DNA of 64,000 nucleotides, taken from contig JAZGDE010000046.1 of the NCBI GenBank assembly GCA_036477295.1, positions 13,135-77,134 of the forward strand. Direction: 5' to 3'. This DNA comes from Bacteroidota bacterium (GTDB taxonomy: Bacteria; Bacteroidota; Ignavibacteria; UBA10030; JAZGDE01). Made by a program: the position numbers and the translations under genes. Numbering within the stretch: the stretch's first letter is position 1; each line of letters begins with the position of its first letter. Below, in pieces: positions 6,872 to 21,604 of the stretch. The notes beneath the pieces were generated by a model. The model saw only the letters and a list, made by a program, of their open reading frames with translations, was not told where the DNA came from and searched no databases.

Positions 6872-7411
6872 ATGCAGGTCGGAACTCTGGCGAATTCTCT
6901 CTGGGAGGAAAACAAATTCTGGGTACTCGCGCGGTCACGAAATCTCTACTATGACATCGCCGCAACTCTCGCAGACAAAACGTACGATCAGACATATCGC
7001 CTCCTCGAGCTAGCTTCGGCAATCCCAGAGTACAATTTCCAGCATGCAGCCGACCAGGTATGGGGATGTCTTCAAGAGATTGTAGGGGAAAAGGAGAGAC
7101 AAGAGTGGGATGTTCTCGAAGATATTGGAGACATCCTTACGAAGAAAGAATTTCTCTGGCAGCTCATCTTGCGGTACCGGGTCGTGTACCTGCTGAACTG
7201 TAGGCTCTTTTTTGACATCAACCCGTTTGACCGATTTGTCTTCGCGGCCGGCAGCCAGAAGAAGCTTTATCTGTGGAATAGAATTCGGGTGATGGAGATC
7301 GACGTCCAGCACCTCATCAAAAAATCCGGCCGCCTACACGATCCGAACTACCTTTTAACCATTCTCGTCAACGGTCATCTCTACCCAAACCCGAAACTGG
7401 AAACTCGGTGA
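6872..7411 (+). CDS. Hypothetical protein, no recognisable family
   Basis: 179 aa. Codon usage looks coding. No motif I can assign. Lies in the same small inter-operon gap as the DUF559 gene. Confidence 0.45.
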   Translation: MQVGTLANSLWEENKFWVLARSRNLYYDIAATLADKTYDQTYRLLELASAIPEYNFQHAADQVWGCLQEIVGEKERQEWDVLEDIGDILTKKEFLWQLILRYRVVYLLNCRLFFDINPFDRFVFAAGSQKKLYLWNRIRVMEIDVQHLIKKSGRLHDPNYLLTILVNGHLYPNPKLETR

Positions 7412-7450
7412 CGGACCTCTCCCCGCGCGGGAGCATGGAGAAGTGCGCTG

Positions 7451-7535
7451 CTCTCACCCCGGCCGCTCAACACCACAAACCCCTCTCTCGAAAACGAGAG
7501 AGGGATGATTAACAATCACAGTGCCGAGGTGGGAG
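7451..7535. repeat. 85-bp structured repeat element, copy A (terminal inverted ends ctctcacc/ggtgggag, internal hairpin cctctctcgaaaacgagagagg)
   Basis: First 52 nt differ at 1 position from copy B at 8000. Lies immediately 3' of the DUF559 gene stop. On the minus-strand RNA the hairpin is followed by GGUUUGUGGUGU. Confidence 0.6.
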
Positions 7536-7536
7536 G

Positions 7537-7932
7537 CTATTCAAGGACTGATTGTCGTTTAAATGACAGAATTTTTTCAAGCACGCCCTTGAGATCCTCG
7601 CTCACCGCATCGTTCTTGACCCTCAAAACTCGAAGATCTCTCTTTTGGATCTCTGCGAAGCGTCCGTCGTCATAGGACTTCTGCTCGCGATCATCATGGA
7701 CGCTTCCTTCGAGCCCGATGACGAGCCTATGCTCTGCACAGTAAAAATCCACAATATATCTTCCGATCGGATGTTGACGGAGAAAGCGGAGTCCACCAAG
7801 TTTTCGATTTCTGAGCTCCTCCCACAACAGCTTCTCTGCAGGGGTTAACCGTTTTCTCAGATCACGCGCGATCTCTCTGATTTTTCGTGGATCGGTGCCC
7901 ATTGTGCATCGGATGAGGGGGAACAGCTCCAC
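7537..7932 (-). CDS. DUF559 endonuclease-fold (Vsr-like) domain protein
   Basis: Matches the YcjD/DUF559 pattern: LTPAEKLLWEELRNRKLGGLRFLRQHPIGRYIVDFYC...RVLRV. An alternative start is at M11 (position 7902). Confidence 0.8.
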   Translation of the reverse strand: MELFPLIRCTMGTDPRKIREIARDLRKRLTPAEKLLWEELRNRKLGGLRFLRQHPIGRYIVDFYCAEHRLVIGLEGSVHDDREQKSYDDGRFAEIQKRDLRVLRVKNDAVSEDLKGVLEKILSFKRQSVLE

Positions 7933-7998
7933 GAACGTAGGAAGTCAGTATCTCAATGTCAACATTCGACTGTAAACAGACTTGGGAATGAGGTTGAA

Positions 7999-8085
7999 CC
8001 TCTCACCCCGGCCGCTCGACACCACAAACCCCTCTCTCGAAAACGAGAGAGGAGTAATCGACGATCACAACGCTCGGGTGAGAGG
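7999..8085. repeat. 85-bp structured repeat element, copy B (perfect 10-bp terminal inverted repeat cctctcaccc/gggtgagagg, same internal hairpin)
   Basis: Direct-orientation copy of the 7451 element, immediately 3' of the MDR oxidoreductase stop (8086). Confidence 0.6.
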
Positions 8086-9120
8086 TCATTCCCCAACCCG
8101 AAGTACTATCTTGCCGAAATGCTTTCTCTCTTCCATCCGGCTCTGGGCTTCAGCAGCCTGAGCGAGAGGAAACACCGAATCGACGACTGGCTTGAGTTGT
8201 CGTGACGGAAAAAAACTCAGGACGCGGATCAGCTCAGATGTTTTCCCCATGTACGAACCGTAAACTGTGAGGTGACGGGAGAATATATATCGGAGGTCCG
8301 CTGAAACGATTCCACCCGCCGTCACCCCGCAGGTTACCATTCGACCCTTCCGCCGAAGGAGCGCAACGCTCTTCTCGAACACCACGCCGCCGATGTGTTC
8401 GATCACGATGTCCACCCCCTGCTTCGCGGTAAGTCGACGCACTTCAGCCACGAAATCCGTGGTGCGGTAGTTCACCGTTTCATCCGCACCGAGTTGCTTT
8501 GCTTTCTCGAGTTTCTCGTCGCTCCCGGCAGTCGTGATGATGCGGGCACTGAACATCTTCGCGATTTGAATCGCTGCGCTTCCCACGCCGCTTCCCGCAC
8601 CATGGACCAACACACATTCCCCCGTCTGCACCTTCGCCAATCCAACCAGCATATGCCAGGCCGTCAGGAAAACGAGAGGTACCGCGGCTGCCTCCTCGAA
8701 GCTGAGTCCTTCCGGAATCGGAAGAACATTTGATGCGGGAACTTTAACGAACTCCGCATAGGTACCGTGCTCTTTCATACCGAGAACGTGGTATGTCGAA
8801 CAGACATTGTCATCGCCTGCCCGGCAGGCAGAGCAAGTCCCGCAGCTCAGGCCAGGAGAGATCAGCACACGATCACCGACCTTCACGTTGCTGACTCCGA
8901 TACCGATTTCCGAGACAATTCCGGAACCGTCTGACCCCGGGATGTGCGGAAGCGGAGTGGGCCAGTTGGGGATGCCCCGGCGAATCCAGAGATCAAGGTG
9001 GTTGAGCGCTGCCGCTTTAAGCTTGACGAGGACCTCGTTTGGACCGAACGTGGGAGTGGGCACCTCACCGTACTTCAGAACTTCAGGGCCACCATGTTGT
9101 TGAAAAAGGATCGCTTTCAT
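8086..9120 (-). CDS. Zinc-binding medium-chain dehydrogenase/reductase (quinone oxidoreductase / alcohol dehydrogenase family)
   Basis: 344 aa. GroES-like N-domain with Cys cluster CGTCSAC, Rossmann VHGAGSGVGSAAIQ. Confidence 0.8.
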   Translation of the reverse strand: MKAILFQQHGGPEVLKYGEVPTPTFGPNEVLVKLKAAALNHLDLWIRRGIPNWPTPLPHIPGSDGSGIVSEIGIGVSNVKVGDRVLISPGLSCGTCSACRAGDDNVCSTYHVLGMKEHGTYAEFVKVPASNVLPIPEGLSFEEAAAVPLVFLTAWHMLVGLAKVQTGECVLVHGAGSGVGSAAIQIAKMFSARIITTAGSDEKLEKAKQLGADETVNYRTTDFVAEVRRLTAKQGVDIVIEHIGGVVFEKSVALLRRKGRMVTCGVTAGGIVSADLRYIFSRHLTVYGSYMGKTSELIRVLSFFPSRQLKPVVDSVFPLAQAAEAQSRMEERKHFGKIVLRVGE

Positions 9121-9525
9121 GGAGATCTTCTTCTCTCAAATCCTCAATCGTCTCATGAATCCTCAACGTTACCTCGCCGAGGTTTCCACACACATCAGTT
9201 GCCGAGAATCTCAGGAACCGAATTCCAAGTTCCTCTCAGATGCTCCGTTGTAAATGCGAGTCATTTTGGCAACCTCCCCTCCTTACTAAGGATGGGAAAT
9301 CTCGAGGCGTACCTTGTCCCCCTTGATAAGGGGGACTTCGGGACAGGCCTTCACGCGAAAACGGCAGACAGGCATTCATCAGAGACCTCTTGGACAGCAG
9401 TTACAACATACACAAAATCAATGAACGATCCGCAATGAAAATACGAGCGGTGAGGGTCGGCCAGCACGCTGCACGAGGCCTTTGAGAAATGATGGTGCTC
9501 GCAGGAGTATCTTAAAGTGCGAGTC

Positions 9526-14483: not shown

Positions 14484-14650
14484 CGCGAAGGCGATGGCAA
14501 ACCAGTTCCACTGAAACTTACTCCCCCCAACCCGACGGTTGTACTGCTGCAGCCATAACGCGCCTTCTTGATTGTGGATTGTGAATCGTAGAAAATCATC
14601 ACGATTACGTTAAACCATGTTGTGAGAGGAACAATGGCGTTTCGTCAGTG

Positions 14651-19152: not shown

Positions 19153-21604
19153 TCAGCCTTTTTGCCTTTTCAGTTCTTCCAGTTCTGCCTCGATGGCGCC
19201 AAGAACCTCCTCATCGGTTTCCCGTGCCTTCAGGTTCATGAGCGTTTCGATCACCCGGTCGCCACCGATCCTGTCCAGCATGCGAATCGCCGCGAGCCGG
19301 ACCTCCTTCATTTGATCTTCCACCAGTCCGATGGTCCAATCCTGCACTGCCTTCTCGTTCTCGACGAAGCTTCTTAATCCGGCGAGCGCTACCTCGCGAG
19401 TCTTCTTCGGCTGACCGTATGTGGAGTACTTGATCAGATGCGGAACTGCCCGTTCGTCCTCGAGCGACGCCAGCACGGAAAGGGCTGCGTTACAAACACC
19501 ATTGTCGTACGAAGGGGTCTTGAGGTGCGAAACTGCAACATCGTAAGCGCTTGCTGAGTCGACCTTCGCATACGCCTTCAACGCGTCAGCGTTCACGACG
19601 TAGCTTGGATCTTCCTCCATTGCCTGCCGCAGGAAGTTCCGCACCCGTTGACCTGGAAACCGGCTCAGGTTGTTCACGACTGCCTGCCGCACCTTCGACT
19701 TCTGGTCTTTGTACGCCTCAATGAGTGCATCTTCGGCTTCTGGTATCGTCATTCTTCCGATCGCGTTCACCGCCTCCATCCGGACGGCCCAGAAGGGGTC
19801 TGAAAGCACAACATCTCGGAAGACCCGGAACGACGCTCCAGTGGACACCGCATCCGAGTCGGATCGCAACTGCTCCAACGCCGTCAAGCGTTCGACCGCA
19901 TCCCCACTCGACCGGAGTTGATAGATGAGTTCCTTGCGCGATCTTGGAAACCGAACTTCCTTGAGAATCCAATTTCCCTTGTCGAACACGACGAGAAGTG
20001 GTTTGGAGTCAACTGGGATGGTGAACTCCTCCTGCTTCTCTGAGATCAGCACCCGATGCGTTCGGGCGCCGGACGCAGTGGTAATCTCAATATCCAACGG
20101 CGTTCGAAAGATGTTCGTCAAGCTGTCAATTTTCTGCACCTGCTTTATTGACAGCGTAATGCTCCTTGCTGACTCATCCCAGTGAGAGGTCACCTCGAAC
20201 TCCGGATATCCTGCCTTATAGATCCACTGGTCGAAGAACCACGACAGGTTTTGTCCCGTCGATTCCTCGATCGCAAGTTTGAAGTCGTTTGTTTCGACGC
20301 TCCGATATTGGTACTGATGAGCGTAGTGGCGAATCGCTTTCCAGAACAGTTCGTCACCAAGTACAAAGCGAAGCATGTGCAGCACCATCGCTCCCCGTTC
20401 AAAGAGGTTCGCCCTGAATGAATTCACACTCACGATCGGTTTCCTCCCTGAGGTTTTGTCAGAACTGATTGCGGCACGCTGATCCCGATACGTGTTGTAA
20501 GCAAACTCATCCGTGCCGAGCCGGTATTCCTGGTGGAGAGCCTCAAAATACGTGGCGAAGCCTTCATTCAGCCAGAGATGCCGCCAATCCTTACACGTGA
20601 TTAAGTCACCCCACCACTGATGGGCAAGTTCATGGGCGATCAGACCTCGACTGCTCCGATCGAGCTCCGCGCGCTTGTCAAATACAGCAGACTTGTCGTT
20701 CAACGTTGTCGCTGAGGTGTTCTCCATGCCACCCCACATGAAGTCTGCTATGGTGACCTGAGCATACTTTTCCCATGGATACACGTATCCGATTTTCTGA
20801 GAAAAAAATTCGACCATGTCTGCGGTCTCCCGGAAGATCCGTTTCGCGTCCTCAACCTGATGAGGGTACACGTACGATGAGGACGGGAATATTGTTGTAC
20901 CGGTCTTCAAGGATCTCGTAGACCCCGGCGGCCAGCATGATGAGGTATGACACGTGCGGCTTCGACTGCTTCCAGTGGTATGTTCTTGTTCTGTCCTTCT
21001 TGTTCTGCTTTACGCTAACAAGCTCCCCGTTCGAAAGGACGGTGTAGTCGCCCCGGACCGTCGCGATGACCTCCGAAGTTGCGCGATCGTTGGGAAAGTC
21101 GTAGCATGGAAACCAGAAGTGGTTCTCCTCCGCTTCTCCCTGCGTCCAGATTTGCCACGGCTTTGTCGGATACGCACTGTCGGGCTGGACAAAGTACAAT
21201 CCCTTCTTTGGAACGCTGCTGTACACCGTTGAAATTGTAATCGTGTCCCGGAAACTGTAAGTCCTATCAAGCCAGATGCGCAGCACTTTCGGGAGGACTG
21301 CATACCGCAATGAGTTGCTGCTCCCGATCCTAACTAAGTGCACATCGAGTCCCTCGGCGTCGAAGTCAAGTGAATCAAGCTGCGGAAGCAACGGAACGAG
21401 CGTCGTGTTCACCGTTCCGATCACCATCTTCTTTGGCTCATCGAATTGCACTTCGATCCGATAGTGAAGGACGTCGTAGGTTCGACTTCGTGCTTCGCCA
21501 GGTGTCCATTCCGAGAACAGCTGCTGCGCTTCCGCGAAGGCCCAGGCTCCAAAAGATAGGGTAAGAAGAGAAGTGAGAATGCGAAACATCCGAAATTGAT
21601 TCAT
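19153..21604 (-). pseudogene. M1-family aminopeptidase (aminopeptidase N-like) split by a +1/-1 frameshift near 20855-20910
   Basis: The N-terminal ORF has a signal peptide MNQFRMFRILTSLLTLSFGAWAFA and the M1 N-domain, and ends ...NNIPVLIVRVPSSG*. The overlapping downstream ORF (TTG start) carries GGMEN and HELAHQWWG...E zinc motifs. The two reading frames overlap by 58 nt, so one gene is interrupted. Confidence 0.7.

Follow-up and report, generated by a model that had tools for sequence, protein, structure and literature searches.

A DUF559 nuclease gene between nested palindromes in a Bacteroidota genome, a candidate selfish cassette associated with triplex-type repeats

Why does a small gene of the DUF559 family, encoding a protein with a Vsr-like nuclease fold, lie between two copies of one structured repeat? 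The question is raised by a locus in a 64,000-nucleotide (nt) stretch of contig JAZGDE010000046.1 (assembly GCA_036477295.1, positions 13,135–77,134) from a Bacteroidota bacterium, the whole of which is called the window here. The DUF559 gene (7537–7902, minus strand, 121 amino acids (aa), intact-looking with an ATG at 7902) is bracketed by repeat copy A (7451–7535) and repeat copy B (8000–8084), and a leader of 97 nt (7903–7999, minus strand) separates copy B from its start codon. The site lies between two convergent host genes, one of 179 aa on the plus strand (6872–7411) and one for an MDR oxidoreductase on the minus strand (8086–9120). A preceding examination of the letters alone, below called the sequence-only reading, had described two structured repeats around the gene, and proposed that they form a small mobile or REP-like module and that the repeats could act as terminators. 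The evidence presented here makes it probable that the locus is a selfish DUF559 nuclease cassette bounded by palindromes, on which we infer the nuclease to act.

The copies are direct repeats; 7451–7542 and 8000–8091 align over 92 nt with 84% identity and a spacing of 549 nt. Their likeness is unevenly distributed, with a near-identical 5' half and a divergent 3' half as the sequence-only reading had it: the first 53 nt (7451–7503 and 8000–8052) differ at a single position, A at 7469 and G at 8018, and the following 33 nt carry about 10 mismatches. Each copy is a nested palindrome with a perfect inner hairpin, CCCTCTCTCG-AAAA-CGAGAGAGG(G), located at 7481–7504 and 8030–8052 (arms 7481–7490 and 7495–7504 around the loop 7491–7494 in copy A, and 8030–8039 and 8044–8052 around the loop 8040–8043 in copy B). 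The hairpin is enclosed by complementary outer arms, in copy A CTCTCACCCCGGC (7451–7463) with GCCGAGGTGGGAG (7523–7535) and in copy B CTCTCACCCC (8000–8009) with GGGTGAGAGG (8076–8085), so that the two structured repeats are borne out. Both strands are predicted to fold strongly, as RNA with z = -4.2 to -6.5 and none of 200 shuffles equally good, and as DNA with z = -3.7 to -6.1 against shuffles. In the 64 kb there are exactly two occurrences of the 23-nt hairpin and exactly two of the 30-nt 5' segment, where 100 shuffles give an expectation of 0, and a looser scan of the window for nested palindromes again found just copies A and B. The stop codons of the DUF559 gene (7537–7539) and of the MDR gene (8086–8088) are 1 base from the outer arms of copies A and B, respectively, and the repeats are thus located directly 3' of two minus-strand genes, as had been stated. 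Copy B might have been part of the neighbouring gene, and this can be dismissed because its overlap with the MDR gene is confined to the stop and one more codon.

The 179-aa gene served as anchor in the search for gene-less alleles, and five homologues of it are present in the protein collection, all from uncultured Bacteroidota. In locus L001, where the flanking genes are about 98% identical to those of the window, the same two repeat copies and the DUF559 gene are found. In L175 and L176 (flanking genes about 96%) the 179-aa gene is followed by one element and the MDR gene, without DUF559, and the outgroup L179 (about 80%) likewise has one element, here with an enlarged hairpin loop, and no gene. 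No such element is found in L178 (about 78–82%) or L180. The single element of L175 and L176 consists of 7451–7503 of copy A joined to 8053–8084 of copy B, and the copy B part, the right 33 nt of that copy, is identical base for base. Since the L175 element has the left of A and the right of B, the alleles differ by an insertion/deletion segment of 549 base pairs (7504–8052), present in the window and L001 and absent from L175 and L176, with its junction inside the shared 53 nt. The boundary slides freely within these 53 nt, and 7451–7999 is an equivalent description. One defined site is accordingly filled in the window and L001 and empty, with a single element, in L175, L176 and L179, and the proposal of a small mobile module gains from a sister lineage in which the site has a single element without the gene. 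As the outgroup also has one element and no gene, the most economical history is that the gene was gained once, in the common ancestor of the window and L001. At about 10 of 33 positions the right half of copy A departs from that of copy B, while the host DNA around it is 96–98% conserved, and this half therefore came from elsewhere, from another copy, together with the gene. Copy A is then a hybrid, whose left 53 nt agree with the resident element and whose divergent right 33 nt arrived with the cassette.

At the same convergent intergenic site L178 has a different long inverted repeat (about 620–826), GTTGAGAGTTAAGAGTGACGAG ... CTCTCACTCTTCACTCGTCAC. In two elements, L002 2714–2820 and L179 3569–3674, an additional small hairpin of 25–30 nt (e.g. 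CGCTGCGTCCCAAAGGGACCTCTTCGGGG) stands in place of the 4-nt loop of the hairpin, suggesting that the loop itself is a site of insertion or expansion.

The product of the DUF559 gene matches PF04480 with 111.5 bits (cut-off 20.6, E-value 2.4e-32). This is its sole significant Pfam match, a second one to RBB1NT having 16.9 bits and lying under the 25-bit cut-off, and NCBIfam PRK09767 is matched with 78 bits, under the equivalog cut-off of 218. The protein is a single domain, residues 17–123 of a 131-aa open reading frame, and the gene is free-standing between the two host genes; the 121-aa protein has no N-terminal NUMOD or helix-turn-helix region, and its locus shows no intron or intein residence. 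In the PDB a profile of the subfamily finds 3hrl, a DUF559 protein of unknown function (E-value 2e-30), and the catalytic domain of I-Bth0305I (3r3p, 2.4e-7). An AlphaFold (AF2) model with a pLDDT of 86 retrieves the same two structures by Foldseek (3hrl 2e-7; 3r3p 9e-5, TM 0.62/0.76), and also Vsr (1vsr, 0.027). Residues E23, D52, H69 and D78 are invariant across 35 relatives and present in the window protein. The last three align within one residue or less of D196, H213 and D222 of 3r3p, in an alignment that starts after E23, and D196 and H213 are the residues mutated to alanine in the 3r3p crystal. Judged from this alignment and from the description in PMC3239194, E23-D52-H69-D78 should correspond to the EDxHD tetrad.

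The family is large, with 32,001 clusters at 50% identity matching the subfamily profile. Relatives were found at only 11 loci in viral contigs, so phages are not the main home of the family, and models of anti-phage defence gave only a weak match to 'homing endonuclease' (E-value 0.004). The window protein has glycine at position 63 (LVIGLEG, codon 7714–7716), where at least 90% of the relatives have glutamate, among them the 95% identical protein of L001 (IIELEG). The genes of the window and L001 have six differences, all of them amino-acid-changing and none silent, a pattern that is compatible with neutrality given the small number, and not with strong purifying selection, and that suits a selfish gene better than a housekeeping one.

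Further traces of DUF559-like sequence are found in the window. Upstream of the MDR gene, 9134–9235 (minus strand) together with 9316–9336 is a probable decayed second DUF559 cassette. A fragment here resembles the C-terminal part of DUF559 (LGIRFLRFSATDVCGNLGEVTLRIHETI, E-value 0.029 among 2130 six-frame fragments), and a pyrimidine/purine hairpin, GTCCCCCTTGATAAGGGGGAC, is located 80 nt from it. Fragment and hairpin belong to a segment of about 250 nt that is shared by the window, L001 and L175 and absent in L179; a Pfam search with the 38-aa putative remnant gave no match. Positions 14511–14609 (minus strand), in an intergenic region of 430 nt, show a weak likeness to the N-terminal motif of DUF559 (EGALWLQQYNRRVGGSKFQW), with an E-value of 0.54 that is not significant alone.

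To which class of repeats do the two copies belong? BoxC, PIT and triplex motifs, familiar from E. coli since the 1990s (Bachellier et al.; Hoyne and Maher 2000), are present in hundreds of genomes, and their origin and function are unsettled. Intrastrand triplex motifs have three blocks, and all three are present in both window copies: a pyrimidine block CCCTCTCTC, a complementary purine block GAGAGAGGG and a mirror block GGGTGAGAG (8076–8084, plus strand, with its copy A counterpart at 7527–7535). When reversed, GGGTGAGAG reads GAGAGTGGG, which matches the purine arm GAGAGAGGG of the hairpin with one T for A. The mirror blocks of the other strand are CTCTCACCC at 7451–7459 and 8000–8008, and as the three blocks are present on both strands the whole becomes a nested palindrome. 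In both copies 21 nt separate the mirror block from the hairpin, a distance longer than the second loop in published definitions, N3 in TMECO, 1–6 nt in ITxF and 0–10 nt in Hoyne et al. (PMC4666352). The E. coli TMECO consensus is CCCTCNCCC N3-6 GGGNGAGGG N3 GGGNGAGGG (Holder et al. 2015, PMC4666352), and the blocks of the window, which are of the CTCTC type, do not conform to it. By its block order the window element is a long-spacer variant of the BoxC/PIT/intrastrand triplex motif family. Like the members of that family it has the three-block logic with T for A and is intergenic, often paired in inverted orientation and variable between close strains, and unlike them it has CTCTC-type blocks instead of CCCTCNCCC, a mirror spacing of 21 nt in place of 3, no more than two copies in the 64 kb, and a nuclease gene inside the element. 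Holder et al. (2015, PMC4666352) describe triplex motifs as always intergenic and state that neither a transposase or integrase nor any other mobility function has ever turned up in their vicinity.

The sequence-only reading had proposed folding and covariation analysis across copies. The folding part held strongly, as given above, and covariation gives little signal: among 14 elements from four phyla 96.8% of the cells are paired, one pair has a compensatory change, and G-U cells are no commoner than A-C cells. The signal is weak because the arms are conserved in sequence and not only in pairing, and as there is no excess of G-U over A-C, covariation does not separate RNA from DNA structure. 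This weak signal, the outer arms that are mirror copies of the hairpin, and the recombinant junction marked by the divergent 3' halves are three points that go beyond what had been noted before.

Is the combination of gene and repeat peculiar to this locus? We collected 80 DUF559 loci in a metagenome scan with a 12-sequence protein alignment, the DNA element not being used in the selection, and searched 300 nt upstream and 300 nt downstream of the gene for hairpins with a perfect pyrimidine/purine stem of at least 8. Upstream their density is 3.05 per kb and downstream it is 2.0 per kb, compared with 0.12 per kb elsewhere in the same loci. A hairpin is present upstream in 51 of 80 loci, downstream in 35 of 73 and on both sides in 25 of 73, and a repeat common to both flanks is found in 44 of 72 loci (direct in 32, inverted in 28, some having both). 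A mirror block lies within 45 nt of 124 of the 129 DUF559-adjacent hairpins, and within 8 nt of 101. Triplex-type motifs are present in the flanks of 63 of the 80 loci, in 54 in the canonical short-loop form, and this form has a density of 1.81 per kb beside the gene and 0.072 per kb elsewhere. The DUF559 subfamily is thus generally linked, by about 25-fold, to triplex-type palindromes. No paper tying DUF559 to these repeats was found in a literature search with most subscription journals outside its coverage.

Related elements exist elsewhere in the related genomes and in other phyla, so that the element is not unique to the locus; uniqueness is what the sequence-only reading had named as a refutation of its idea. 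With DUF559 genes generally flanked by repeats, the idea of a mobile or REP-like module is strengthened. L002, which encodes a DUF559 protein 66% identical to that of the window, has related elements on both sides of the gene, two on each. A search of genomes with the window hairpin gave 92 loci. The arms beside the hairpin (CTCACC 5' and GGTGAG 3') are on the correct side in 47 of 93 hits (8 with both, 17 with the left only and 22 with the right only) and on the wrong side in 5 of 93, the background being 0.02–0.03 per flank. The arms CTCTCACCC / GGGTGAGAG recur near the hairpin in Bacteroidota, Armatimonadota, Deinococcota and Chloroflexota, where the DUF559 proteins share no more than about 42% identity. 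In one Armatimonadaceae genome bin the hairpin is found at 13 loci, several of them complete solo elements, and at one of the loci (L026) an arm and hairpin, a DUF559 gene (42% identical to that of the window) and a hairpin and arm follow each other. One further copy each is found in the bins of L175 and L179, at L077 and L084, both intergenic and 8 and 24 nt past gene ends. The element is so nearly palindromic that its orientation with respect to the gene is ambiguous. An alternative count, of 9/9 complementarity between outer arms at the 92 pattern hits, was uninformative since shuffled G+C-rich flanks reach 9/9 too often, and was replaced by the side-specific motif count given above.

Cultured organisms provide the same association in more defined settings. 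Deinococcus proteolyticus and D. wulumuqiensis have a unit consisting of GGGCCAGCGTTGCTGCCCACCCCCCTCCCGG and the hairpin CCTCCCCCGCAAGGGGGGAGG, the DUF559 gene, and then the reverse complement of the same, the inverted ends being about 50 nt long. It is located between hpaB and the adjacent oxidoreductase gene, an operon junction at which D. radiodurans, D. ficus and D. deserti have neither gene nor element; in D. radiodurans the two genes overlap by ATGA. In this case the unit brought its own ends into an element-free site. On the D. wulumuqiensis R12 plasmid (NZ_CP049358.1, L185 about 1045–1185) an insertion of about 135 nt, relative to D. proteolyticus, splits the DUF559 gene; it has inverted ends TACGGATTCC / GGAATCCGTA and resembles an unrelated small miniature inverted-repeat transposable element (MITE).

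In E. coli K-12 the DUF559 gene is ycjD, located between sapF and fabI. A TMECO type A motif (CCCTCGCCCCTCTGGGGAGAGGGTTAGGGTGAGGGG), which conforms to the TMECO consensus, is found about 180 nt downstream of it, and a half palindrome spans the ycjD stop codon. The ycjD form is present in 3,375 of 5,426 complete genomes; within E. coli the gene is conserved in phylogroups A, B1 and C, and other phylogroups carry the eefRABCD operon at its place (PMC12817139). Between the half palindrome and the TMECO motif, the last 35 nt or so of ycjD are duplicated about 100 nt downstream (L201 1399–1432 and 1497–1538). In Picosynechococcus sp. PCC 7002 a DUF559 gene on plasmid pAQ6 (L181, about 21037–21402) lies between arrays of the short repeats CCCCCGATTCGGGGG and GGGGGCTAGGGGGC, and these arrays look like a cyanobacterial form of the association.

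How might the locus of the window have arisen? In the favoured selfish cassette model, the cassette would comprise the DUF559 gene, the 97-nt leader and a palindrome copy of its own, and it would have joined a resident solo palindrome between the two convergent host genes, with copies A and B as the junction elements. The joining would have taken place inside the 53 nt, made up of the 5' arm and the hairpin, that cassette and resident element had in common, and the expected product is the resident left with the cassette right (A), the gene, and the cassette left with the resident right (B). The route might be a single crossover with a circular form, or break-induced copying as in homing; the data fit either. 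The DUF559 protein is presumed to recognise and cut the palindromes, after which the gene and its ends would be copied or moved by the repair or recombination machinery of the host. The solo elements of 85 nt may be gene-less derivatives or footprints, formed for instance by recombination between flanking copies. The picture of a selfish gene that decays once it has arrived agrees with the glycine at position 63, the six replacements, the interruption in D. wulumuqiensis and the probable decayed cassette on the upstream side of the MDR gene.

Several observations weigh against this model. Binding and cutting of the repeats is for DUF559 an inferred activity, a 121-aa nuclease alone cannot perform strand transfer, and the window copy may be inactive, since it has glycine where relatives have glutamate. 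Recombination between A and B could just as well have produced the single element of L175 by deletion. None of the junctions, in L175, the window or Deinococcus, showed a target-site duplication, and because the gene-less Deinococcus sites have no element, a resident element is not always the target. The flanking repeats are direct in some loci and inverted in others. Seventeen of the 80 DUF559 loci have no triplex-type motif within the flanks examined, and for the majority of motifs, in E. coli (22 of 23) as in the Armatimonadaceae genome, there is no neighbouring DUF559 gene.

The last point also bears on the idea that the palindromes are an independent repeat family, BoxC/PIT-like or REP-like, which often breaks and recombines and in which DUF559 is a mere passenger with no enzymatic link. 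Solo elements do outnumber gene-linked ones, a different palindrome occupies the same intergenic site in L178, and triplex-motif loci are reported to be more rearranged between close E. coli strains than control loci (PMC4666352). A passenger would, however, hardly account for an association on the protein side that is specific, about 25-fold and present at 63 of 80 loci, nor for the fact that all three intergenic pyrimidine/purine hairpins of the window adjoin DUF559 or a DUF559-like remnant, and the Deinococcus unit took its own inverted ends into an element-free site; we regard this explanation as unlikely. If the hairpins were instead expression signals, i.e. terminators, stabilisers of mRNA 3' ends or transcriptional insulators, their duplication would be incidental. 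This would agree with the position of both copies 1 base from minus-strand stop codons, with the solo copies at L077 and L084 shortly after gene ends, and with the inner hairpin, which on the minus strand is followed by TTTGTGGTGT and has a terminator-like score. The T-rich tail is nevertheless weak, found on the minus strand only and not conserved in relatives, being absent from the L002, L026 and Deinococcus copies, and the PIT (BoxC) elements of E. coli are reported to have neither promoter nor terminator activity (PMC4666352), so that the terminator role put forward in the sequence-only reading is not upheld. A signal of this kind also leaves the mirror third block, the outer arms and the hybrid junctions unexplained, the equal frequency of G-U and A-C cells gives no sign of a strand-specific RNA structure, and no Rfam family is matched, making this explanation quite improbable.

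A host function for the protein has to be considered as well, with DUF559 as a Vsr-like repair or maintenance nuclease for hairpin, cruciform or triplex DNA that is kept nearby because it is of use to the cell. In its favour are the Vsr-like fold and the conservation of ycjD in three E. coli phylogroups (PMC12817139). It is difficult to reconcile with a gene that is present or absent among close relatives, with six of six differences between two close copies changing the amino acid, with the existence of decayed and interrupted copies, and with a single copy located beside its own repeats and not at a conserved genomic position, and we consider it very unlikely. Still further from what is observed, and hardly to be entertained, is a structured non-coding RNA: the predicted folds are very stable on both strands, yet there is just one compensatory pair in arms conserved as sequence, the element is equally palindromic on both strands with no fixed orientation to the gene, and Rfam gave no credible match, neither at gathering thresholds for the whole window nor at permissive thresholds for 7300–8250.

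The proposed selfish cassette has features in common with several known systems and is identical to none of them. It resembles the EDxHD homing endonucleases (I-Bth0305I, PMC3239194; Dassa et al. 2009, PMC2677866) in the nuclease fold, the E-D-H-D residues, the presence or absence of a selfish gene at a defined site and the palindromic symmetry of the target, and differs in that the DUF559 protein has the nuclease domain only, is rare in viral contigs and is found in intergenic repeats of cellular genomes. As with REP/REPIN sequences and their RAYTs (TnpA-REP), one small gene is flanked by palindromes that may also be dispersed without the gene in the same genome, as in the Armatimonadaceae bin; in the 64 kb of the window both copies are at the gene. 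RAYTs, however, are HUH/Y1 enzymes and mostly vertically inherited, whereas DUF559 is of the PD-(D/E)XK/Vsr-like type and varies between sister lineages; Pfam gave no match to an HUH/Y1 (IS200/IS605-like) transposase for the DUF559 gene. The Deinococcus unit, with inverted ends of about 50 nt around one gene, is reminiscent of insertion sequences and MITEs, and solo elements resemble two ends joined, but a known transposase fold is lacking and a target-site duplication was not observed. Integron cassettes with attC sites, and Campbell-type integration, offer a parallel in the order hybrid site, gene, hybrid site and in an imperfect palindrome able to fold as a hairpin. Unlike integrons the locus has no cassette array, and no integrase is encoded within 6 kb on either side, as examined in the syntenic L001, where the genes belong to metabolic or other cellular Pfam families or to none.

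The link gives DUF559, a very large family without a function, and the motifs a concrete testable hypothesis each, DUF559 being a testable candidate for what creates or moves BoxC/triplex-type repeats. We suggest tentatively, and with less than even confidence, that DUF559 might be the missing enzyme of the BoxC/PIT/triplex repeats and the sole protein, a Vsr-like PD-(D/E)XK nuclease, of a new class of mobile element, whose palindromic ends would persist as thousands of gene-less copies across phyla; its cutting could explain the instability of motif loci. The hypothesis can be tested in E. coli K-12 with ycjD and its 23 TMECO motifs. If it is true, the range of Vsr-like homing nucleases widens beyond the introns and inteins of phages and takes in intergenic repeats in cellular genomes.

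The MDR gene encodes an oxidoreductase of the zinc-type MDR kind, and the 179-aa gene belongs to no Pfam family; a scan for tRNA and tmRNA genes gave no match. A small pyrimidine/purine hairpin, CTCCC-CGCGC-GGGAG, is located at 7419–7433, 8 nt past the stop of the 179-aa gene, and is kept in L175.

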